Shown piece after piece: positions 20,614 to 53,889 of a stretch of DNA of 64,000 nucleotides. How positions within the stretch are numbered: position 1 is the first letter of the stretch; each line of letters opens with the position of its first letter. The translations under genes and the position numbers were made by a program. The notes beneath the pieces were generated by a model that was not told where the DNA came from, ran no database searches, and saw nothing but the letters and a program-made list of their open reading frames with translations. The DNA is from Anolis carolinensis (lineage: Eukaryota), in the NCBI RefSeq assembly GCF_035594765.1, contig NC_085841.1, positions 176,561,574 to 176,625,573 on the forward strand. Direction: 5' to 3'.

Positions 20614-21586
20614 TGTGATGACTCATGGGCCTTGTAGTCCTGCTTATGACACTGTAATGCCTGATGATGAAGAAAACTTGGGTTTTTTACCTTCCCAGTC
20701 TGAACTGGAATCTTCCCAGCCAGATCTTTCCCAGGCAGATCTGGGAACCTTGCACCTGCAAGAGAGTTGTGACCCAGAAGTATGTCAAACAAATCCGGAG
20801 CCCACTTCCCCTGTGTTCTCCCGCCATGAGTTTTGTAAACAACAGAGAAGTTTGGAAGCTGCTTCGCGCAGGAGTGCGAGGATAGCAGCCAAGAATTCAG
20901 CCAATTAAGTCTGCTTTTTCGTGAGAATCCTTAAGGAGGCAAACATCTGGTCTCAAAGATTAGCTTTCGTTTCTGGTTCCCAGAGAACTGCTTCGGCGGG
21001 AAAGTTAGACTCTATATAGGTGATTTACCCGCGAAGTAACTTCGCGGAGTCAATTCGTCAACCTCCGGAGCGAGTTGTGTCTGGACAGCGCGCTCCGTTT
21101 CAAGCCTCGCTCCTGCTCAAGCCTTGCCCTGCTTTTCAGCCTTCGCTCCTGTTTCTGCCTTGTTTACCTACGGACCTTGCTTGTTTCCCGGGACTAAACA
21201 TTGCCTTGTATCACGGATTTTACCAAGTTTTTTCCACGGACCTTGTTCTTGTTCCTTGTTACCTTGTTCCACGTTTTAAGCCTTGTTTCAAGTATCAAGT
21301 TATTTCCTAGCCTTGCTCAAGTTTATGGACTAAAGGACCTTGTCATCTCCCCTCACTTTGCCTGGCAAAGTGAGTGTTTCGGTTATTGGATTACAACTTT
21401 GAACCTTAATATTTCATATTGGACATCGCTTTTTTGAACTAATTTAGACCTTTCCTGAAAGGTCTGCTTTTGGACTATTTCATATACTTGCTTTTATTAA
21501 CTTTATATATTCCTTCAATAAAGATATTAGATAGATTCTGGCCTCTGTGTTTGGTTATTGGTGCCTTTGCAGCCTGGGTCCTGACA
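20614..21586 (+). repeat. 5' LTR (TATA ~21013, AATAAA 21517-21522)
   Basis: TGTGA...TGACA termini; direct repeat of 26062-27034. Confidence 0.97.
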
Positions 21587-21588
21587 GT

Positions 21589-21598
21589 TTGACTCCGC
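21589..21598 (+). promoter_or_regulatory. Self-priming primer-binding site
   Basis: TTGACTCCGC, 2 nt after the LTR end, is the exact reverse complement of GCGGAGTCAA (21044-21053), 31 nt downstream of the TATA box; no TGG-type tRNA PBS is present. Confidence 0.85.
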
Positions 21599-21629
21599 CA
21601 CCCATAAGCACCAATTAACCAAGGCCAGA

Positions 21630-22616
21630 ATGTCGACCGGAGCCGCGCCGGCTGGGCAGCCGCTCAGCTACACCATCAGCAAAGATGAAGTGGATCGCAT
21701 CCGTGACAGACTCAACGCGCAGGATGGAGAAATAAAAGGATTGAGGGAGCGCGGAGTCCGCCTCCCGGCCATGGCGTTGCCAACCAAGTTTTCTGGAGAA
21801 GCTTCCAAGGTCCAAGTTTTCCGCCGCCAGTGCCAGGCTTACCTAGAGGCCCGTGCCGCCGAGTTTCCCCAAGAAGACATCAAGGTGGCGTGGGTTTACA
21901 GCCTTCTAGACGGACCAGCGGCCAGCTGGGCGACGGCCCTATTCGATCAAGCCTCTTCCCACCTAAGAACAGCGCAACGCTTCTTGGATCACCTTAAGGA
22001 GACCTGGGGAATCGAGGACAATTTGGAGGCAGCCGGCCATAAACTCCGGCGCCTCTTTCAAGGAGACAGACCCATGTCTCAGTACATAGCTGAGTTCCGA
22101 GTGCTGGCCCACAGCACCGGCTGGAACGATGTAGCCCTCAGGGGACAATTTCGGGAGGGTCTCAACATTGAAATGCTGGAAGAAATCTCCAAGGTGGACC
22201 CTCCCCAGTCCCTCGAAGCACTCATTGACCAATGTTTACGGGCTGAAGTCTTGATTGCCAACAGGAAACAATGGGTACGTGGTCAGAGCGGTAGAGCCGG
22301 GGCAAAACCCCCCGCTCCCGCCAGCGTCCAGCCGCGTCCAGTGTGGAGACCCCCACCACCAACCCCATACCCCAGAGGGAGCGAGGAGGTGCCGATGCAG
22401 TTGGGCAACGTGCGACCCAGGTTAGATGCCGCCGAGAAGGCCCGTCGCCAACGCTTAAATCTCTGCTGGTATTGCGGAAATGGGGGCCACTTCGCCAGAG
22501 AGTGTCCAGCCAAAGGGAAGCCCGCCGCCCGTCTTGCGGCGGCGTCCTCCACGGAGACGAAGGCGTCTGAGGCGGCTGGCACACAGCCGGCGGGGGAAGC
22601 CAACGACCGGGCGTAG
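21630..22616 (+). CDS. gag: Gag (capsid plus CCHC zinc knuckle), 328 aa
   Basis: LPTKFSGE, QGDRPMSQYIAEFR (MHR-like), VPMQLG and CWYCGNGGHFAREC; sushi/PEG10-like architecture. Confidence 0.95.
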   Translation: MSTGAAPAGQPLSYTISKDEVDRIRDRLNAQDGEIKGLRERGVRLPAMALPTKFSGEASKVQVFRRQCQAYLEARAAEFPQEDIKVAWVYSLLDGPAASWATALFDQASSHLRTAQRFLDHLKETWGIEDNLEAAGHKLRRLFQGDRPMSQYIAEFRVLAHSTGWNDVALRGQFREGLNIEMLEEISKVDPPQSLEALIDQCLRAEVLIANRKQWVRGQSGRAGAKPPAPASVQPRPVWRPPPPTPYPRGSEEVPMQLGNVRPRLDAAEKARRQRLNLCWYCGNGGHFARECPAKGKPAARLAAASSTETKASEAAGTQPAGEANDRA

Positions 22617-25600
22617 AGAGGCTCGCCAACCCGGTCAAAAAAACCATTCAAGAGCCGCCAACCGGGGTCCTGTTCCTTCTAGTGGTCACCTTATGGTCAG
22701 CAAAAAGGGGACCCGTCATGATCCACGCCATGATAGACTCCGGAGCCACCAACAACTTCATTGACAGAGAGTATGCCGACTCTCTGGGATTACAATATCA
22801 TGACTTCAAGAATGCCCGTGTGGTGCAAGCCATAGACGGCCGCCCCCTCAAGACGGGGCCCGTAAGCCAGTGGTCAGAACCCACCAGGATGTGGATAAGG
22901 GAACATATGGAAGAGATTTCTTTCTTTGTTACCGAGGTTCCCCATTTCCCTGTGATTTTGGGAATCCCGTGGCTGACTCTCCACGACCCAAGCATCTCCT
23001 GGTCCAACAGAGAACTACAGTTTGCTTCAAAGTACTGCCAAAACCATTGCCTCGTAGCCAAGGTCTGCCATGCCACAGAGACCGAGCCCATCATCACCCT
23101 GCCCAAGAAGTACTCCGAGTATTGGGATGTATTCAATGAAAAAGAAGCCGAGAAATTACCCCCACATAGACCTTATGACTGTGCCATTGACTTGGTGGAG
23201 GGGGCCCCGATCCCGCGAGGGCACCTATACTCCCTGACTGAACCGGAGCAAGAAGCTCTCAGGGAATTCATAGAGACAAACCTTCGCAAGGGATTCATCA
23301 GACCCTCTCAATCCCCAGCCGCCTCCCCAGTGATGTTTGTGAAGAAGAAGTCAGGGGAATTACGCTTGGTGGTGGACTACAGAGCATTGAACAATATCAC
23401 CAAGCGGAACAGTTATCCCCTGCCCTTAATCTCGGATCTACTGGACCGACTTCGAGGAGCCAAGGTCTACACCAAGCTGGATCTTCGAGGGGCTTATAAT
23501 CTAGTTCGCATCAGAGAAGGGGACGAGTGGAAGACTGCCTTTCAGACTAAATTCGGATTATTCGAGTCCCGAGTTATGAATTATGGATTATGCGGAGCCC
23601 CCGCAACGTTCCAGCATTTTGTCAATGATATTTTTCAGGACTATCTAGATCGGTTCTTGATAATCTACCTGGACGATTTTTTGGTGTTTTCTAGATCACA
23701 ATCAGAACATGAGAACCACGTCAAAATGGTGTTACAACGTTTGCGAGATCATGGACTTTATGCCAAGTTGGAAAAATGCGCTTTCGATCTACAAGAGGTA
23801 GATTTCCTTGGTTACCGTATCTCGCCTCTAGGGCTCTCCATGGATCCAGCCAAGGTTTCAGCAGTATTGGAGTGGCGGGCGCCAACTAACAAGAAAGAGG
23901 TGCAACGTTTCTTGGGGTTCGCGAACTATTACCGCAAGTTCATTCCAGATTTTGCCCGCTGGTCTGACCCAATCACTAGCTGCATCCGTGGAAAACAGCC
24001 CTTCCGCTGGACTGATCAAGCAGAGAAAGGGTTCCAGCAATTAAAGAAATTATTCACGTCCCAGCCAATTCTACAGCACCCAGATCCTGGAACCCCTTTT
24101 GTTGTGCAAGCGGACGCCTCGGACGTGGCAATTGGGGCTGTACTCTTACAACCGGTGGGAGACCACCTTCATCCCTGTGCCTTTTACTCCCGTCAACTAA
24201 CCACACCAGAGAGAAATTACACCATTTGGGAAAAGGAACTACTGGCCATAAAGGCAGCCTTTGAAACTTGGAGACATTGGCTAGAAGGGGCCAAATTTCC
24301 CATTGAAGTCCACACTGATCATCGAAATCTAGAACATCTAAGAACTGCCCGCAAACTAAATCAGAGGCAGCAACGTTGGGCTTTATTCTTTGAACGTTTC
24401 AACTTCCAGATCCATTATGTGACCCCAGCCCAAACCAAGCAAGCAGACGCCCTGTCACGTAAACCGGAATACGCTGCAGGACGCAAGGAGACCTTTGAAT
24501 CCCAACTACTACAACCCGAGAACTTTGCCACGCTCACAGTGGGGAACACCAAATCCACTCCCATTGGTTCAACTTCCTCTACTCCAGGACCCATCTGTGC
24601 TCAAGAAATCAGGGCCAGTCAGCAAGCAGATGCCTGGGCGCAGGACCAACTTCGTCAAGGTCTGCATTTTCCCTTTTCGCTTAAAGATGGACTGCTTTGC
24701 TATAGAAATCATGTTTATATCCCACCCGGACCGGGCAGGGAAAAAGCGCTTCGTCTGTGTCATGACTGCAAACCAGCAGGGCATTTCGGACTATTTAAAA
24801 CCATGCATCTGATCCTAAGGGATTTTTGGTGGCCCAAGATCCGCAAAGATGTGGAAAAATATGTCAACACCTGCCCAGTATGCCAGCGCTCCAAGATAAG
24901 AAGGGAGAAACCCTCGGGGCTTCTACATCCCCTTCCTACCCCATCTCGCCCATGGGAAATAATTTCTGCGGATTTCATCACTGACCTACCACCTTCCTGT
25001 GGATTCACCACGATCCTAGTGGTGGTGGACCTTTTCACCAAGTTAGCCCATTTCATACCCTGTGAAGGTCTCCCCACGGCCAAAGAGACTGCAGATCTAT
25101 TCCTTCAACATGTTTTCAGACTACATGGATTGCCCAAGAGTTTAGTCACAGACCGTGGATCTCAATTCACCTCTCGTTTTTGGAAGGCACTACAGAAACT
25201 ATTGGGCATAGACTCTCGCTTATCTTCAGCTCATCATCCTCAAACAGATGGGCAAACGGAGCGCACCAATGCCACCTTGGAGCAGTATCTTCGCTGTTAT
25301 GTAAACTACCAACAGGACAATTGGGCTTCTCTGTTACCACTGTCAGAGTTTGCTTATAACAATGGAGTTCAAGCTTCTACAAAAGAAACGCCGTTCTTTG
25401 CAAACTACGGCTTCCACCCACGTTTCTTTCCCCCTGTCATTGAAACTTCAGAAGTTCCCGCAGCAGAGGATTGGCTGCAGGAACTCACAGCGGTACAACA
25501 ACTTTTGCTCCAGCAACTGGACCAAGCCAAGGAGGACTATAAACGCCACGCTGACAAACATCGCCAGCCGGGCCCCGAAATCAAGGTAGGAGATCGGGTT

Positions 25601-26356
25601 TTCCTGTCCACTCGCTTTCTGCCCTCCCACCGCCCTTGCCGGAAGTTAGATGCCCGTTTCATTGGCCCTTATCCAGTGGTGGCGCAATTAAACCCCGTGA
25701 CTTTCAAACTCCAACTTCCGCGTTCAATGCGCATCCACCCAGTGTTTCACCGTTCCCTGCTCCTTCCGGCGGATGGTGTGCGTCCTGATACAGACCAACC
25801 GGCTCCCCCTCCTGTTTTGATGAATGGGGAGGAGGAGTTCGAGGTTGAGGACATTTTAGATTCTCGCTTTCACCGCCGCCGCCTGCAATATCTCATTGAC
25901 TGGGTGGGTTTTGGCCCTGAGGAGCGCTCTTGGGAAGACGCCTCCACAGTTCACGCTCCTGATCTAACCCGTCGCTTTCATCAGACCTATCCCACCAAAC
26001 CGCGGCCTCGCGCTTCGGGGAGAGAGTCCCAGTTTGGGAGGGGCCCTGAGGAGGGGGATAGTGTGATGACTCATGGGCCTTGTAGTCCTGCTTATGACAC
26101 TGTAATGCCTGATGATGAAGAAAACTTGGGTTTTTTACCTTCCCAGTCTGAACTGGAATCTTCCCAGCCAGATCTTTCCCAGGCAGATCTGGGAACCTTG
26201 CACCTGCAAGAGAGTTGTGACCCAGAAGTATGTCAAACAAATCCGGAGCCCACTTCCCCTGTGTTCTCCCGCCATGAGTTTTGTAAACAACAGAGAAGTT
26301 TGGAAGCTGCTTCGCGCAGGAGTGCGAGGATAGCAGCCAAGAATTCAGCCAATTAA
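22571..26356 (+). CDS. pol: Pol (PR-RT-RNaseH-IN-chromodomain plus LTR-encoded tail), in the -1 frame relative to gag
   Basis: Frame open from 22571 (after TGA at 22568-22570). Motifs: DSGA protease, YLDD RT, DASD RNase H, H-x6-H...CPVC zinc finger, D-D-E core (SADF/TDRG/ERTN), GPYP, chromodomain EEFEVEDILDSR...YLIDWVGF...SWE; the stop codon lies inside the 3' LTR. Confidence 0.95.
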   Translation, partial: GGWHTAGGGSQRPGVERLANPVKKTIQEPPTGVLFLLVVTLWSAKRGPVMIHAMIDSGATNNFIDREYADSLGLQYHDFKNARVVQAIDGRPLKTGPVSQWSEPTRMWIREHMEEISFFVTEVPHFPVILGIPWLTLHDPSISWSNRELQFASKYCQNHCLVAKVCHATETEPIITLPKKYSEYWDVFNEKEAEKLPPHRPYDCAIDLVEGAPIPRGHLYSLTEPEQEALREFIETNLRKGFIRPSQSPAASPVMFVKKKSGELRLVVDYRALNNITKRNSYPLPLISDLLDRLRGAKVYTKLDLRGAYNLVRIREGDEWKTAFQTKFGLFESRVMNYGLCGAPATFQHFVNDIFQDYLDRFLIIYLDDFLVFSRSQSEHENHVKMVLQRLRDHGLYAKLEKCAFDLQEVDFLGYRISPLGLSMDPAKVSAVLEWRAPTNKKEVQRFLGFANYYRKFIPDFARWSDPITSCIRGKQPFRWTDQAEKGFQQLKKLFTSQPILQHPDPGTPFVVQADASDVAIGAVLLQPVGDHLHPCAFYSRQLTTPERNYTIWEKELLAIKAAFETWRHWLEGAKFPIEVHTDHRNLEHLRTARKLNQRQQRWALFFERFNFQIHYVTPAQTKQADALSRKPEYAAGRKETFESQLLQPENFATLTVGNTKSTPIGSTSSTPGPICAQEIRASQQADAWAQDQLRQGLHFPFSLKDGLLCYRNHVYIPPGPGREKALRLCHDCKPAGHFGLFKTMHLILRDFWWPKIRKDVEKYVNTCPVCQRSKIRREKPSGLLHPLPTPSRPWEIISADFITDLPPSCGFTTILVVVDLFTKLAHFIPCEGLPTAKETADLFLQHVFRLHGLPKSLVTDRGSQFTSRFWKALQKLLGIDSRLSSAHHPQTDGQTERTNATLEQYLRCYVNYQQDNWASLLPLSEFAYNNGVQASTKETPFFANYGFHPRFFPPVIETSEVPAAEDWLQELTAVQQLLLQQLDQAKEDYKRHADKHRQPGPEIKVGDRVFLSTRFLPSHRPCRKLDARFIGPYPVVAQLNPVTFKLQLPRSMRIHPVFHRSLLLPADGVRPDTDQPAPPPVLMNGEEEFEVEDILDSRFHRRRLQYLIDWVGFGPEERSWEDASTVHAPDLTRRFHQTYPTKPRPRASGRESQFGRGPEEGDSVMTHGPCSPAYDTVMPDDEENLGFLPSQSELESSQPDLSQADLGTLHLQESCDPEVCQTNPEPTSPVFSRHEFCKQQRSLEAASRRSARIAAKNSAN
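26048..26061 (+). promoter_or_regulatory. Polypurine tract
   Basis: GAGGAGGGGGATAG directly before the 3' LTR. Confidence 0.9.
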
Positions 26357-27034
26357 GTCTGCTTTTTCGTGAGAATCCTTAAGGAGGCAAACATCTGGTC
26401 TCAAAGATTAGCTTTCGTTTCTGGTTCCCAGAGAACTGCTTCGGCGGGAAAGTTAGACTCTATATAGGTGATTTACCCGCGAAGTAACTTCGCGGAGTCA
26501 ATTCGTCAACCTCCGGAGCGAGTTGTGTCTGGACAGCGCGCTCCGTTTCAAGCCTCGCTCCTGCTCAAGCCTTGCCCTGCTTTTCAGCCTTCGCTCCTGT
26601 TTCTGCCTTGTTTACCTACGGACCTTGCTTGTTTCCCGGGACTAAACATTGCCTTGTATCACGGATTTTACCAAGTTTTTTCCACGGACCTTGTTCTTGT
26701 TCCTTGTTACCTTGTTCCACGTTTTAAGCCTTGTTTCAAGTATCAAGTTATTTCCTAGCCTTGCTCAAGTTTATGGACTAAAGGACCTTGTCATCTCCCC
26801 TCACTTTGCCTGGCAAAGTGAGTGTTTCGGTTATTGGATTACAACTTTGAACCTTAATATTTCATATTGGACATCGCTTTTTTGAACTAATTTAGACCTT
26901 TCCTGAAAGGTCTGCTTTTGGACTATTTCATATACTTGCTTTTATTAACTTTATATATTCCTTCAATAAAGATATTAGATAGATTCTGGCCTCTGTGTTT
27001 GGTTATTGGTGCCTTTGCAGCCTGGGTCCTGACA
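26062..27034 (+). repeat. 3' LTR
   Basis: 973-bp direct repeat of the 5' LTR, followed by TSD GGAGC. Confidence 0.97.
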
Positions 27035-33497: not shown

Positions 33498-35477
33498 AGG
33501 CACTATCTATGCAAACACCACACACCTTTTCTCAAGAGATCTTATGCTCTTTCAGAAATGAACCAATTGTATCAAATACATCATGTGCAGTAGTTGTCAT
33601 TTCAAGAGGTTTGCAAAAGAGAAAGTCATCTTTAAAGTCTCCATCATTAATATACTTCACATAACTGTGAACAGTTTGCAATGTCTGTAGATTCATCAAG
33701 ATGAAAGTGGAGCATATTTAATTCCCTGGATTATCTGGTCAAGAATGTCAGCAGACATGCCATCTATTCTTCTGCGGGCAATGTCATTAGATAAGGAAAT
33801 TGCACTCAGCTTCATAACAAATTCATCTCCAATCATAACTCAATGTTTTTGGCCACTAGAAACAGTAAATCCTCAACAATGGTGAGAGGTTTCATAGCCG
33901 TAGCGATTCTGAGTGCCACCAAATATGAAGCTTCAATGGCTGTTACATTTTGTTTGGGGTACTTGCCACCGGTGTGAAGTCTGGCTTTCTTGAATCCATC
34001 AGTGTTGTAGCCCAGCCTTCATCTGAGCTATCAGGTGAGCCTAAGGTAGGGCCTGTTCAGCCTGTGATTGTCCCTGCACCTGCCTTGTCAGGGGACTCTG
34101 GGTTTGGGCCTGAGAGGTAGCCAGAGTTTGTCCCAGTGGATTCTGGGACCAGAAACATAATGGTTTCAAGCAGGCAGCTTGAACCACATTCCTCAAAGGA
34201 GTCAAGGTTGGATCTCCTGGTGCCAGATGGACATTCTAGTTTGGATTCTGGAAGTGATAAGGCGGATAGGGCTAATGAGCTTGACAGAAGGAAGGCGATA
34301 ACTCAGCAGAGGAAAGAAAGGGAGTGTGTCAGATGAAGTAAACAATTGCTTTTGAAATGAAATAATGAGCAGAGTTCTCATGGAAAGAGACCTTGAGTTT
34401 CCCTTAAAAAGGGCTGCTTTATCTGAAAAATTCAGAGGCAGTAACTTTGCTTATTCAAAAGAGGAAGATCTCTGCTTTGTGCTCCTGTGAACTCCATGTT
34501 ATTTTCCTGCAGCTTTGTATCTTGTTTCTAGTGCCAGCCTTATTTTTGTTTCTGGGGATTTCTGTGTAGCCAGTTGAATGTTCCAGTAACCTTGCAGTTT
34601 GGATTTCTGCTCCAGCCAAAACCCTTGCCATGTGTACCAGCATTAACCTTGTACCTTTGACTAAACTTGGAGATTTGTTCCCGTGTTCCAGCTTTGGCTT
34701 CCTGTGTTCCAGTTCGACTCATGCCTTTGATTAATCCTTGATATCTTGTTTGGACTATTCTTGATACCTGTCTTGGGACTTACTTTGATATCCAATTTGG
34801 ACTATGTTCTTTGAGTGACTTTTATGGACTTTTTCTTCAAGATTTTCATGTACTTAGTTCTTGTGGATTTAAACCCATTCTATTGACTATGAACTTTGAT
34901 TGGTTGCATATAATCTTCAATAAACAGCTTGCTTGCTTATATTCTGGGGCTCCAGTGTGGTTTTGAGGTGCCTACGCAACCTAGGGGTGCAACAATCAGC
35001 TTTGCTTCTAAAATGGTTGGTATATTTGCCGGCAAAGCTCAGATGCTTGCTATCAAAATGGCGTTTTAGTTTGTTTGGCTTCATAGAATTGGTTCACATA
35101 ACTTCACAACAAATAACACATTGTGATTTCTCAATTCCTGCTGTAATTACTGAGGTAAAACCAGTAATTACTGAGGTTAAAAATCCTCACTATATTTTTC
35201 ATAAGTACATTATGCTGCCTACTCTGTCACATGCACTTGTATTTGTATGGAGTGTATGTGATGGGGTTGGTGTGATGATGTCATCATGTTGGGTACTAGT
35301 ATGTGGCCGTATCTGCATGTAGGCGGACCCACCTGGAGATGGGTAGAGGAGTGGTGTCTCTGTTCCTAAAACCACCAGAAATATGTTTTCTGATGGTTTT
35401 AGGCGACCCCTGTGAAAAGGTTGTTTGACACCCCCCCCCCCCCAAAAGTGTCATGACCCACAGGTTGAGAACCACTG
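33498..35477 (-). mobile_element. hAT-Charlie/Buster DNA transposon remnant with transposase pseudogene, split by a solo LTR
   Basis: Minus strand gives SMKPNKLKRHFDSKH...KAD|GFKKARL...EASYLVALRIA...LSNDIARRRIDGMSADI...LDESTDIANCSQL...DDFLFCKPL...VCGVCIDSA; TIR cagtggttctcaacctg at 35461-35477. Confidence 0.85.
34003..34994 (+). mobile_element. Solo Gypsy LTR of a different family, 992 bp
   Basis: TGTTG...CAACA termini, 5-bp TSD ATCAG, AATAAA 34919-34924; removing it restores the transposase reading frame. Confidence 0.9.
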
Positions 35478-44692: not shown

Positions 44693-47385
44693 TATACAAT
44701 AATTTTACTAATTCCATTTTCAAGCATGACTGTTGATGGCCTTTGTCCATCACTTGATCAGAATCCATGTCTTTTATTTCTATTGTAAAGCCTAATAACC
44801 TAGTATTTTTCATATATCATCTGAAATCAGAACGGCAAAGATGCACAGGTAACTATTTTGTCTCAAGTTTGGAAATCAGCATGTTGTTGATTCAAATGTT
44901 GACCACACAGTTCAATTACCTTCTGTAGTGCCGAGAAACACTCCTGGTCTCTTCACCATGGTTTGTGGGTTAGGACTAGTCCATGGAATTACACACTCCC
45001 AACCTCTCACATACATTCTGCTCTTGCCAGCTTAATCAGAATTGTAGCCATACCAATCCTGGCATGACTGATTACAATATGTAACCATAATTAAAGGAAT
45101 GGGCCATGTTAGTTAATGGGTAACGGTGGTCAAAACTGGCCTGAATATCCAAAACATCTTTGCCATCTTATTTGATAGGAGTTACTAAATGTCGTCTCCA
45201 TTAAATCATCTGCCTTTGCTTTTCACAGCACCCAATCCAAGTCCAGTTTCAAAAGCATAATTGCTTCACCTCTCATTATTGTCACATGGCTATACAGACA
45301 TGCTATCTTTAGTCATTTCACTAATTAAATTACATCAAATTACAGCAAACTGGGGATATGGTATGACAGCAATATGGATTAGCAAATTATGCTTTTTTTG
45401 CCCATAAGAAGACATTAAACTGTGCTTGCTGATATTAAATACTCTTTTAGACACATCCCTTTAGCGACCATTTAAATTTAACACAGCACAAAAGATCAGA
45501 GCAAGCAGTATAACAATGTTAGTCACCATCAACAAACATGAAGACCGTGATGTGAGATGGAAATAATATTGGCTACTCTGACCAGAAGAAAAAATAATAC
45601 ACTGATGGAATACATGGTGAACAAAAGCAAACACTACTCTTGCAGATTAATGACACGTCACACTAATTCCAAGAGGCTGAAATCATAAATGAAGAGTAGA
45701 ACACAGTAATTACTCCACTGCCTTATCAAAAGGAATTAGCTTTATTCTACGAACATTGAGAGTATCTATTTTGATAAGCATACAATATTACCCAGTAGCA
45801 GACACCAAACGCACATTCCATTTTCCTTCCAGCCATTCATGGCACATGATAGGAATCTAAGAAAAACACAGCTGCCGTTCTGTTAACATGGTTGCCAGCC
45901 AGATGCCTCTGGGCAGCCCACACTCAAGACATGAGCAAAACTCTGGCCTGCAAAATCTGCACTGTGAAATGACCATACGCCAATGACCTCACCAGTCCAC
46001 CTGATTATCATTATGTGCACAACACCTGTGCTTTCTTTAAAACTACGCCTGGCCAAGTTCCCTTCTGCTTAGAGGCTTTTAAAATTGAATGTTGATTTTA
46101 AAAGCAGAAATGTTTATGACACACTGTCCCCATAACATTGGTGAAGCATTTTTCCACTGAACTTCTAGAAGACATTCTAATACTTCATTACCTTCCATTT
46201 TTAGTTTATTTGCAAATTCAAATTGGATACTTTTCAGTAATATTTACAAATACCAATTCCTGGTTTTACATTCTCTTAATATGTTCCTGTATTCTCCAGC
46301 AAAACAAGAGCTGCTGAAGTCCCCAAGGCTGATGGTCCACAGACAGACAATAAAAATTACAGTAATCGTCCACATTTTAACATAGACCAAAAAATTACAG
46401 TGAAATCATGTTTGTGTGTGTCCATACACACACATGCAAATACACATATATGCACAGCCATGGCACATAATCTTCTAGCAATAGCACAGAAGAATCTATG
46501 CTCGGCATCCTTCACCAATCATAGGTATTCGAAATGTTTTAAGGATCATAAAAACATGTTAAAAATGTATACTGGTTGTATAGGAATCTGGGCATTCTAA
46601 ATCCAAAAATTATTTTAGCTTTGCTCTATCACATATATCCTTCCCCCCCCCCCCCCCCCATCTACTTTGATGTTTCTATCTTGTAATATGTGACTGGGTA
46701 AGATTTCTCTGGGAAATAAAAAATAAACAGAAAGAAAGTAGAAAGCTTTTAGTAGAAAGCTTTAATTCACTGATATGAAAAACAAAATTCATTCAAAAGC
46801 ACTAGAAATCACACTGGAACATCAGACTCCACACATAATTAAAACTGAATTGATGAAAATACTGAATTTGTTAAAGAGCTGTCTGTGGTACGGCATTTTT
46901 ATTGTGTTTTTCTTATTTAGCACCCCAAAATACATTAACAGCAGCTACAGCAGATTCTTTGTGCATGGTCTGTCAGGGCTTTGATCTGCGAACCTCACCT
47001 CCTCCAAGGTGAACAAAACCACCTAAACTGGGCTCTACAGGACAATGGATACTCCACCACAGACATCAGAAGAGCTGCAAGGCCAAGAACAAGCCATGAG
47101 AGTCAAGACAAAGATCCACCCAGAGGAAAGGTGTTCTTACCATACATCAAGGGAACCACTGACCGCATAGGCAAACTGATGAAGAAGCACAACCTACAAA
47201 CTATCTACAGACCCACAAAGAAAATCCAACAAATGCTATGGTCAGCGAAGGACAAGAGGGATCCTCTCTCCTCTGCAGGAGTCTACTGGATACCATGCAG
47301 CTGTGGACAAGTATACATAGGGACCACCAAACACAGCGCCCAAACACAAATCAAAGAACATGAAAGACACTGCAGACTAACTCAA

Positions 47386-48298
47386 TGTGATGATTCATGG
47401 GCCATGTAGTCCCGTTCCTAGTGCTGTTGTGACAGATGAAGAGGAAAACTTGGGTTTTCCACCATTTCAGCCAGAAAAGGAACTATCCCAGCCAGAAATG
47501 GAGCCTTTGCACCTGCAGGAGGTTTGTCTTCCAGAAATCTGCCAAACAAGCCCTGAGTCAAAGTCTCCCCCTTTTTCTCGCCGTAATTATTATCTCCAGC
47601 AAAAAGGAGTGCAACAGGCTAATCGCAGGAGCTTGAGAATTGCAGCAAAGCATTCAGATGATTAAGCCTGCTTCCATGAGAAATTTTAGGGAGTGATACA
47701 TCTGGACACAGAGATTGACTTTCGTTTCTGGTTCCCCAGAGAAGTGTTCTCTGGTGGGGAAACGAGGCCCTATTTAGGTTCCTTGCTCCCGAAGGAATCT
47801 TGCGGAGTCAATTCGTCAGCTACCGGAGCAGCGTGTGTGGACAGCTACTCCTGCTCCCAAGCCTTGTTCCTGTTCCAAGCCTTCGTTCCCAGCCTTGTTT
47901 TCTCCCCGGATCTTGCCTTGTTTCCCGGACCTTGCCAAGTAATTACCACGGATCTTGTTCTTGCTCCTCGTTTCCTTGTTGCCTTGAATCAAGCCTTGTG
48001 TTCCAAGAATCAAGTTATTTCCTAGCCCTGCTCAAGTTCATGGACTAAAGGACCTTGTCATCTCCCCTCACTTGCTTGGCAAGTGAGTGTTTCGGTTATT
48101 GGATTACAACTTTGGACCTTAATATTTCATATTGGACCTTGCTTCTTTGGACTAATTTTGACCTTTCCTGAAAGGTCTACTTCTGGACTATTTCCTATAC
48201 TTGTTTTTATTAACTTTATATATTTCCTTAATAAAGATATTAGATAGATTCTGGCCTCTGTGTATGGTTATTGGTGCTCTGCAGCCTGGGTCCTGACA
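47386..48298 (+). mobile_element. Solo LTR related to the 20614 chromovirus, 913 bp
   Basis: TGTGA...TGACA termini, TSD CTCAA, clear homology to 20614-21586. Confidence 0.95.
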
Positions 48299-48748
48299 CT
48301 CAACCAGAGAAATCAGCCATAGCAGAGCACTTGATGAACCAACCTGGACACAGTATATTATTTGAGAACACAGGAATGCTTGGCCACTCCAACAACTATC
48401 ATGTCAGACTACACAGAGAAGCCATTGAAATCCACAAGCATGTGGACAACTTCAACAGAAAGGAGGAAACCATGAAAATGAACAAAATCTGGCTACCAGT
48501 ATTAAAAAACTCAAAAATCATAACAGTAGATGGGAAGCAGCACTCTGAGGGCAGAGGAGCTCCAGGGATGACTAATGACTCTGAACAAAGGATGCTCCCC
48601 AGGCAAGAGACAAACCTTTCCAATGCTAATTAGAGTGATTAACTGCAACATTCACGCAACATTCCAACTCACAAAGAACTCTTCTCACACCCTGGACTTC
48701 CACAGATATATATTAACCTCCCTTGCCTAGTTTCTCCATGCCTCACAA

Positions 48749-49759: not shown

Positions 49760-50482
49760 TGCAATGAAGTATGAATTTTTGGTTTACAGATGTTATGTTT
49801 AATTGTGTGTTCGTGTTTTAAAAGGATAAGTATTACAGTTATTACATCTCAGTACTCAGAGGCTGGTTGCCATGGAGAAGTAGGCGGAGCCAACTGCCAT
49901 TGTGTTGAAGAAGTGCAGAGTTTTAAAAAAAGGGATTCAGTCTGTGCTCTGATGAGGCACAGGGAAGATTGATCCTAGGTTGAGGGGATCAAGGAGACTC
50001 AATTGTTCATTTTGAGTTGGTTTAAAATAAGTTTGGTGACTTATTTAATGTAGCCTGTGTCCTGGTAAGGAACAGAGAATCTGTGATCGTATATCACAGG
50101 GGTGACTGCGGTTTAAAAGTAGCAGAGGAAGAAGTTCTAACTACTTTAAGTAAAAGAAGTGACACCTTAGGGAGTTTGACTCACCTCATTCTAGTATTGT
50201 AACTGTTAATAAAAGTGCCTCTAAGTGAGAAACAACATTGTAACCACTAAGCTCTGTGCCTGAATAAACTTGTTATTGTTCCTCCAACATCTAAGCCTCT
50301 GTCGCATATATTATAAACCAAGTTGTGTTACCATCTAAAGTGAATAAGAAGAAGAAGGGAAAAAAAGTAAAAGGTCTCCTCTCTGAGTTTTTGGTGGTTG
50401 CATCTTCACAAATTACTGGCAGCGGTGGGATAAAAAGTTTCCCCCTGCCTGAAAGAACCTTAGTCGTTCATAGTCCTTTACA
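49760..50482 (+). mobile_element. Solo LTR (family B, copy 1)
   Basis: TG...TTACA termini, TSD tggag/gggag, AATAAA near 50262; highly similar to 53058-53839. Confidence 0.8.
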
Positions 50483-52955: not shown

Positions 52956-53889
52956 GGACTCTTCTACACTGCCACATAACCCAGATTATCAAATCAGATA
53001 ATCCACATTATTTACTTTGAAGTGGATTATGAGTCCACACTGCCATATAATCCAGTCTAATGAAGTATGAATTTTTAGTTTACAGATGTTATGTTTAATT
53101 GTGTGTTTGTGTTTTAAAAGGGTCAGTATTTCAGTTATTGCATCTCTGCACTCAGAGGTTGGTTGCCTTGGAGAAGTGGGCGGAGTCAACTGCTGTTTTG
53201 GTGAAGTGCAGAGTTTTAAAAAAGCAGTTAGTCTATGCTCTGATGAGGCACAGGGAAGACTGATCCCAGGTTGAGAGGATCAGGGAGGCTCAACTGCTTA
53301 TTTTTGAGCCGGATTAAAATAAGTTTGGTGACTTATTTTATGTAGTCTGTGTCCTAGTAAGGAACAGAGAACCTGTGACTGTATATCACAGGGTGTCTGC
53401 GGTTTAAAAGCAGTAGAGAAAGAAGTTCTAATTACTTTAAGCATAAGTAGTGACACTTTAGGAAGTTTGAATTCTCATTCTAATATTGCAACTGTTAACA
53501 AAAGTGCCTCTAAGTGACGAACAATTTTGTAACCACTAAGCTCTGTGCCTGAATAAACTTGTTATTGTTCCTCTAACATCTAAGCCTCTGTCATATATAT
53601 ATTATAAACTGAGTTGTGTTACCAAGTTGTGAATAAGAAAGAAGAAAGAAAAACAAAATTTATAAGGTCTCCTCTCTGAGTCTGTGGTGTCTGAATCTTT
53701 CCCAAAGTGGTGGCAGCGTTATAAAACCTTTACAATTTGGTGGCAGCGTTTAATAAACCCTTTACATTTGGTGGCAGAGGTGGGATTTAAAAGGATTCCC
53801 CCTGCCTGAAAGAGCCTTAGACGTTCATAGCTCTTTACACAGTCCAAATCAGATAATCTGGATTTTCTTTGGCAGTGTAGAAGGGGCCT
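52956..53889. mobile_element. Harbinger-like MITE interrupted by a solo LTR
   Basis: cttctacactgcc...atccagtc | insert | cagtccaaatcagataatctgg...ggcagtgtagaaggggcc. Confidence 0.75.
53058..53839 (+). mobile_element. Solo LTR (family B, copy 2)
   Basis: TSD CAGTC on both sides; ends ctttaca; the 5' TG appears lost. Confidence 0.8.

Follow-up and report, generated by a model that had tools for sequence, protein, structure and literature searches.

Chromoviruses whose coding region runs into their 3' long terminal repeat (LTR) are known from plants. According to the accessible text of the source, the coding region of CRM group A elements extends into the 3' LTR, and the LTR encodes a CR motif that replaces the chromodomain (PMC3059260). 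The beet Reina-clade elements Bingo1-4 and Bingo7 carry their chromodomain upstream of the polypurine tract and an ORF that continues into the LTR, an extension for which the available part of the source names no conserved motif or function (PMC3605345). A second set of relevant systems binds the acidic patch of the nucleosome by means of arginines. The sources, as far as they were accessible, report such binding for the motifs RRSSRLTS of Dsup and RRSARLSA of HMGN (PMC13347269, PMC12487698), the same motif being an arginine anchor in the cryo-EM structures of HMGN2 and Dsup (PMC12487698), and for yeast Dot5 RRSARIAT, in which nucleosome binding requires three arginines and is abolished by mutations of the acidic patch (PMC13347269). 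Retroviruses also choose integration sites by acidic-patch tethers: in the available portion of the source, foamy virus Gag is shown to tether to the patch, loss of binding redistributes the integration sites, and a similar anchor is suggested for MLV p12 (PMC9040877). Chromodomain-guided integration is cited in the accessible part of PMC5053271.

Here we compare with these systems three elements found in one window (the whole 64,000-nucleotide stretch of DNA that was analysed): a full-length chromovirus, A, and two solo LTRs, B and C (Table 1). Compared by layout, A resembles CRM group A in that its coding region reaches into the 3' LTR; it differs in that no CR motif replaces its chromodomain, which stands before the polypurine tract while the LTR adds a second module (PMC3059260, accessible text). 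The position of the chromodomain and the run of the ORF into the LTR are the same in A and in Bingo, although the latter are plant elements. With HMGN, Dsup and Dot5, the RRSxR[IL] core with three arginines is common to A and to a relative of C; in the accessible texts these three are chromatin proteins of the host, and their binding is demonstrated (PMC12487698, PMC13347269), whereas here the motif ends a retrotransposon frame and is predicted to be helical. Likewise, foamy virus Gag and p12 are Gag products, whereas the anchor predicted here would be on an integrase and LTR-encoded; the available portion of PMC9040877 is silent on retrotransposons. Plant CRM and Bingo elements are known to read through into the LTR, while an HMGN-like motif in such a tail was not found in the literature searched. 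Indeed, within that literature, mostly openly available main texts, we found neither a retrotransposon integrase described as bearing an HMGN-like or acidic-patch motif nor this tail in lizards; an earlier mention of vertebrate LTR read-through is possible.

A first-pass annotation of the window had described in C a hidden frame and had interpreted it as independent support for a clade-wide, LTR-encoded integrase tail. The observation was mostly right; the interpretation was right in kind but overstated, and is partly supported by the results below. We assign a probability of roughly 55% to the reading that the frame in 34003-34994 is the C-terminal tail, now decayed, of a chromovirus integrase, with its motif a predicted acidic-patch tether.

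Table 1. Features of elements A, B and C, in window coordinates
Feature	Position	Strand	Details	Basis
Element A	20614..27034	+	Full-length chromovirus, GGAGC target duplication	
LTRs of A	20614-21586 and 26062-27034		973 nt, 0 mismatches	
gag of A	21585-22616			
pol of A	22571-26356			
pol tail of A in 3' LTR	26063..26356	+	97 aa from LTR nt 2, past chromodomain and polypurine tract, ends RRSARIAAKNSAN	
Left target-site duplication of C	33998..34002	+	ATCAG	
LTR C	34003..34994	+	Solo, 992 nt, TGTTG...CAACA	Termini, target duplication, contig edges
Broken frame of C	34004..34360	+	From LTR nt 2, 118 codons and stop, likely decayed pol/integrase tail	
Stretch duplicated in other family-C copies	34058..34130	+	Mostly whole codons	Contig joints
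Terminal arginine motif site of C	34331..34348	+	Broken in window copy, open in natural relative P0002	
TATA-like box of C	34404..34409	+	Weak, TTAAAA, LTR nt 402	Pattern match only
3' end of C	34905..34994	+	AATAAA (34919-34924), then R/U5-like end; homologous to ends of A and B	
Right target-site duplication of C	34995..34999	+	ATCAG	
LTR B	47386..48298	+	Solo, CTCAA target duplication, 92 aa open from LTR nt 2, ends RRSLRIAAKHSDD	

Pol read-through and selection in elements A and B

The gag and pol of A are both open, lie in different frames and overlap at 22571-22616. Together with the identical LTRs and the target duplication, this indicates a very recent insertion. The order of the pol domains is protease, RT, RNase H, integrase, SH3 and chromodomain, with the Pfam chromodomain before the LTR. 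The frame remains open across the junction and for 295 nt into the 3' LTR, of which nt 2 begins a codon.

As regards B, the Anolis pol P0063 ends in the B tail type, which gives, at the level of a protein record, a pol-into-LTR layout for this type too. Over 92 codons of the A and B tails, dN/dS was 0.29 (Fisher p 2e-5), while the shifted frames gave 1.03 and 1.31. Between A and B, indels were multiples of three in 5/5 cases inside the tail, where two pairs among the five cancel out and may be alignment artefacts, and in 2/17 cases past the tail. Judged from these substitutions and indels, the A/B-type tail is under purifying selection. Of 31 Anolis pol records inspected, 19 reach the end of the chromodomain, and 16 of these 19 finish with RRSxR[IL].

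Two further features of the window were noted. By eye, the flanks of B (47200-47385 and 48299-48500) resemble the coding sequence of another retroelement, presumably Penelope-like, and a Pfam scan of these flanks gave no match. The segments 49763-50424 and 53059-53718 are direct repeats of about 660 nt, 86% identical and 3.3 kb apart, LTR-like by eye; the sequence between them did not match the gag or pol of A.

Solo LTR C and its broken frame

The TG...CA ends and the 5-bp ATCAG duplication identify C as an LTR, and the start at 34003 given by the first-pass annotation was borne out by the initial TGTTG and by ATCAG on both sides. In public contigs, the summed depth ranged from about 390 to 334,000 within C and from 10 to 90 in its flanks (4/4 runs), with 42-58 contigs per run starting at 34003 and 109-158 ending at 34994. 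The contig flanks at the edges of C disagree with one another (agreement 0.34-0.37). Thus, C belongs to a large high-copy family whose copies have mostly unlike neighbours, and the named records closest to this family in the databases come from the green anole, Anolis carolinensis. Depth was 5- to 50-fold higher at the ends of C (34029-34250 and 34770-34994) than in its middle, which suggests several C subfamilies, with a common frame start, a common 3' end and a differing middle. The CpG observed/expected ratio was 0.11 in C, compared with 0.58 in A, 0.36 in B and 0.30 in the whole window, so that the window copy is decayed.

The absence of nucleotide similarity to the other two LTRs, as originally described, holds for blastn, which gave no match between C and A or B, and for the first 360 nt of C, unalignable with A (421/500 shuffles score as well in local alignment); it does not hold for the 3' end. 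Indeed, the last 90 nt of C agree at 61/82 aligned positions with A and at 58/81 with B (0/500 shuffles each), and the last 260 nt likewise align with A and B (0/500 shuffles). Among 21,304 90-mers sampled from the window, the best non-self matches to the last 90 nt of C were the two LTR ends of A, with the end of B ranking fourth. All three LTRs have 5-bp duplications and the same frame register. Since the 3' ends align, C is a distant sister of A and B, homologous by sequence to the LTR of a proven chromovirus. The support that C lends to the tail cannot then be called independent: with C homologous to A and B, the case is one of deep conservation.

The frame starts at 34004 and has two internal stops, as first read, but it closes two residues later than had been reported. 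The internal stops are at codon 39 (34118-34120) and codon 111 (34334-34336), and the closing stop is at 34358-34360. Its composition is 31% P+S+E, with a net charge of -5 over the first 75% and +5 in the last 25 residues; this agrees with the description of a P/S/E-rich linker followed by a basic helix, the helix being predicted in the natural relative presented below. The register is that of A and B, while the position before the TATA-like box is the same only roughly: the box is at LTR nt 399 in A and nt 386 in B, and the distance from the frame stop to the box is about 105 nt in A and B and 44 nt in C. The motif RRSxRL itself is absent from the window copy, in which the second internal stop interrupts it.

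Two stops or fewer were found in 4.8% of 5000 dinucleotide shuffles for the nt-2 frame, in 14% for any of the three frames, and in 26% of 1273 real window stretches. Since shuffles and real stretches are often as stop-poor, the C frame is weak evidence by itself: taken alone it is near chance (p 0.05-0.14) and proves little.

More information came from the other members of family C. At 34118, another base is present in 98-99% of the summed contig depth in 4/4 runs, which makes the first stop private to the window copy; the second stop falls outside the 40 variant positions listed, of 198. Within the stretch where other copies bear duplications, 8/9 of those listed have lengths that are multiples of three (p 0.001), or 5/6 when distinct lengths are counted (p 0.018). 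Among the 12 joints listed with their letters (9 duplications and 3 deletions, with 35 further joints beyond these), the three deletions break the frame, which is kept in only 8/12, and some of the joints may be one and the same event. The whole-codon lengths indicate coding constraint on the frame of family C.

An open relative was obtained by searching with the C frame, its stops read as X, and it was the only one of 256 candidates. This relative, P0002 (XP_016853733), is an Anolis gene model, whose last 117 residues (1511-1627) are a C-type frame with 53% identity to C (66/125 columns), aligned from residue 1. The tail is open, with the frame kept across three gaps of 6, 8 and 7 codons relative to C, and the two C-type sequences share an aligned methionine. 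It ends RRSKRLFLKHANK, which includes RRSKRL (octamer RRSKRLFL); the ending VRRSKRLL, obtained in the first-pass annotation by undoing the presumed decay, thus has a natural counterpart. AlphaFold2, run on a two-sequence alignment, predicted disorder for residues 1-86 and one helix for residues 87-115, with pLDDT 92-95 for 91-110. Because of the open relative, the private first stop and the whole-codon duplications, we consider the hidden frame real in family C.

P0002 is a predicted ZNFX1-like helicase/zinc-finger model in which the tail follows a 46-aa tandem repeat. It was rejected as proof of a fusion to pol, as this upstream repeat is not pol and has no purine-tract-like residues. Rather than a junction with pol, it looks like the in-frame insertion of an LTR in the model of a host gene; P0002 is either an annotation artefact or a case of an LTR donating a host C-terminus in frame. 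Two other Anolis models named for host genes, P0042 (PCBD2) and P0043 (KCNQ5), cluster with Gypsy pol, which indicates that annotation often absorbs such elements. In any case, one annotated antiviral-type gene model (ZNFX1-like) already terminates in a C-type tail and, if the proposed reading is true, host genes could acquire the module in frame through LTR insertions, as this model suggests.

Integrase tail and alternative readings

A profile built on 19 A/B-type tails scored 14.1 bits on the open tail of P0002 (0/2000 shuffles, or 11/2000 without the last 20 residues) and 4.0 bits on C itself (30/2000 shuffles, or 676/2000 without the last 20 residues), and it ranked the nt-2 frame of C first of 15 scored frame segments. 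In global alignments, the A and B tails against the P0002 tail were matched by 0/2000 shuffles; against C, the values were 399/2000 for A and 31/2000 for B. The profile-profile comparison gave a probability of only 8.8%, covering the last 30 residues. The spacing from FxR to RRS is equal in both tail types. Taken together, the comparisons show a weak kinship of the C tail with the A/B tails, most marked at the end.

A pol bearing a C-type tail was then the missing element. Protein searches for it gave P0002 alone (1/256 and 1/34 candidates), and HMMER over 1.84 billion representatives found no such pol; its two hits were discarded, since their scores were sums of weak matches along repeat proteins, of which the best stretch reached 7.3 bits. 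The ESM Atlas had no match for either tail type, the viral and metagenome contigs had none to the C tail, and the viral contigs offered no usable chromovirus locus. At the left edge of C, the contigs listed, beside 1219 further loose-end rows, had no common upstream sequence or polypurine tract (agreement 0.35-0.37). The LTR-encoded integrase tail proposed at first is shown for A, while for C the parent pol in frame with the LTR was not found in the protein, metagenome and viral searches. By analogy with A, we still regard a fusion of pol into the nt-2 frame as quite likely in the parent of C.

In the mechanism that we propose, the parent pol would pass the polypurine tract and continue into the U3 of the 3' LTR, as it does in A and presumably did in C. 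As both ends of the element receive a copy of U3, the code for the tail would be present in each LTR, solo ones included. Translation would take place only from the 3' LTR of a full element, and a solo copy would decay neutrally, which would account for the private stops and the CpG loss in C; solo LTR C is expected to be untranslated, as its frame is upstream of its TATA-like box. In order, the protein would consist of the integrase core, SH3 and chromodomain, then a linker that is acidic, disordered, flexible in length and free to vary in whole codons, and finally a basic end with RRSxR[IL]. With its arginines placed in the H2A-H2B acidic patch, this end would provide a second grip in addition to the chromodomain.

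The octamer RRSARIAA of A is identical to RRSARIAT of yeast Dot5 at 7/8 positions, and the RRSxR[LI] core with its three arginines is present in A, in B, in the 16/19 Anolis pol ends and in P0002. The likeness to the motif of Dot5, HMGN2 and Dsup, and the tethering of foamy virus Gag, lead us to regard the tail as a second handle on chromatin for the integration complex; from motif identity only, docking in the acidic patch seems somewhat better than an even bet. A point against docking is that the C-type motif lies within a predicted long helix, whereas the tether of foamy virus Gag is extended and that of LANA is a hairpin. Pfam, at E up to 10, returned no family, HMGN included, for the C, A or B tails, and the PDB held no relevant solved structure for them. 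Without a Pfam HMGN match, the tail is no HMGN, but it may work like the HMGN motif.

Another possibility, which we hold unlikely, is that the frame is a real pol tail whose basic end serves in nuclear import or as a general DNA-binding helix rather than as an acidic-patch anchor. Retrotransposon integrases with C-terminal import signals are known, as in Ty1, and the basic end is indeed a predicted 29-residue helix. Moreover, among 37 relatives of the C-terminal region of A's pol, 17, mostly from fish, have RGRP right after the chromodomain, versus 0/19 Anolis records, so that the slot could merely need a DNA-binding patch. However, the conservation goes beyond charge, since it covers RRSxR[IL] with its serine and hydrophobic residue, the tested motif of Dot5 is reproduced in A at all positions but one, and RRSxR[IL] fell in the last 20 residues in 69/200,000 shuffles of the C-type tail, for a pattern picked afterwards.

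Less probable still is that the U3 frame of C is coding but was never fused to pol, being an accessory frame, the end of another ORF or a frame found mainly in non-autonomous carriers. Retroviruses do have accessory frames in U3, namely nef and sag, and the methionine aligned in C and P0002 would suit such a frame. It would also explain why the C-type fusion was absent from every search, though the A-family clusters count 94 and 366 records; on the other hand, if the family is old and few of its copies are intact, no annotated pol would be expected either. Furthermore, the homology starts exactly at LTR nt 2, where there is no start codon, the register is that of A's pol, and the 3' end of C is homologous to that of A, all of which favour the integrase tail.

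Finally, that the frame arose by accident in a GC-richer U3 and was never translated in family C is already disfavoured and very improbable: two stops in 117 codons are frequent in the shuffles and in the window (14% and 26%, as above), the lone open relative was found since a gene predictor requires an open frame, and C alone is scarcely like A or B, but an accident would not explain the whole-codon duplications and gaps, the motif at the same place in P0002, or the profile likeness to tails under selection in the sister families (dN/dS 0.29).

Distribution of the motif and of read-through

Among the 37 pol relatives, in which Anolis is the only reptile, RRSxR after the chromodomain was found in two, both of them Anolis cluster representatives (94 and 366 members). 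The same motif was present in 0/77 readable metagenome chromovirus loci (of 80). Contrary to the first claim, the RRSxR motif is thus not clade-wide, and among the relatives found it seems so far confined to Anolis. The fish hits, which we take to be Sushi-type chromoviruses, have tails of 20-46 aa without RRSxR, with an SPx[YF] end in 9/37 relatives and the RGRP mentioned above, presumably an AT-hook-like motif. A tentative view, which we find a little less probable than its contrary, is that anole chromoviruses hold in U3 an HMGN-type acidic-patch anchor, fused behind the chromodomain, which replaced the fish AT-hook-like motif and outlasted the U3 DNA similarity between sister families.

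If the proposed reading is true, a retrotransposon integrase would be tethered to nucleosomes by an arginine anchor. To our knowledge, insertion-site choice by LTR retrotransposons in vertebrate genomes has been little tested, and a motif near-identical to a proven acidic-patch binder, under purifying selection within an LTR, would allow a second targeting handle to be tested cheaply with peptides, beside the chromodomain. In many solo LTRs, a last exon with a candidate chromatin-binding end would be available ready-made. Although the window copy of C is itself dead, it is of value in showing the tail in a sister family that has diverged deeply.

Read-through was also evaluated in metagenome loci and in fish proteins. 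A purine tract followed by TG within 400 nt of the chromodomain was present in 13 of the 77 readable metagenome loci: four of them read through, all in the nt-2 register (three being near-identical), and nine stop at or before the site. In the DNA of locus L016, 29 codons follow the purine tract and TGTCA, and the stop overlaps a repeat common to the other end of the contig; in L021, the read-through is of 26 codons. Many fish proteins pass through a Gly-rich junction into valine, as A does, the junction being deduced from the protein. This junction suggests that fish chromoviruses read through in the same register as A. Overall, read-through into the LTR seems common.

The fish-type tail ending SPx[YF] was seen in the group of proteins P0013-P0037 and at L016:4520-4705. 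Other loci had different sequences after the chromodomain. At L005:396-1655, a dUTPase domain follows the pol chromodomain in frame (Pfam E 3e-30), with similar text in L009. A group of metagenome chromoviruses, which includes L045, L053, L055, L064 and L074, has some 390 aa of frame after the chromodomain, with the stop 16-19 nt inside the LTR.
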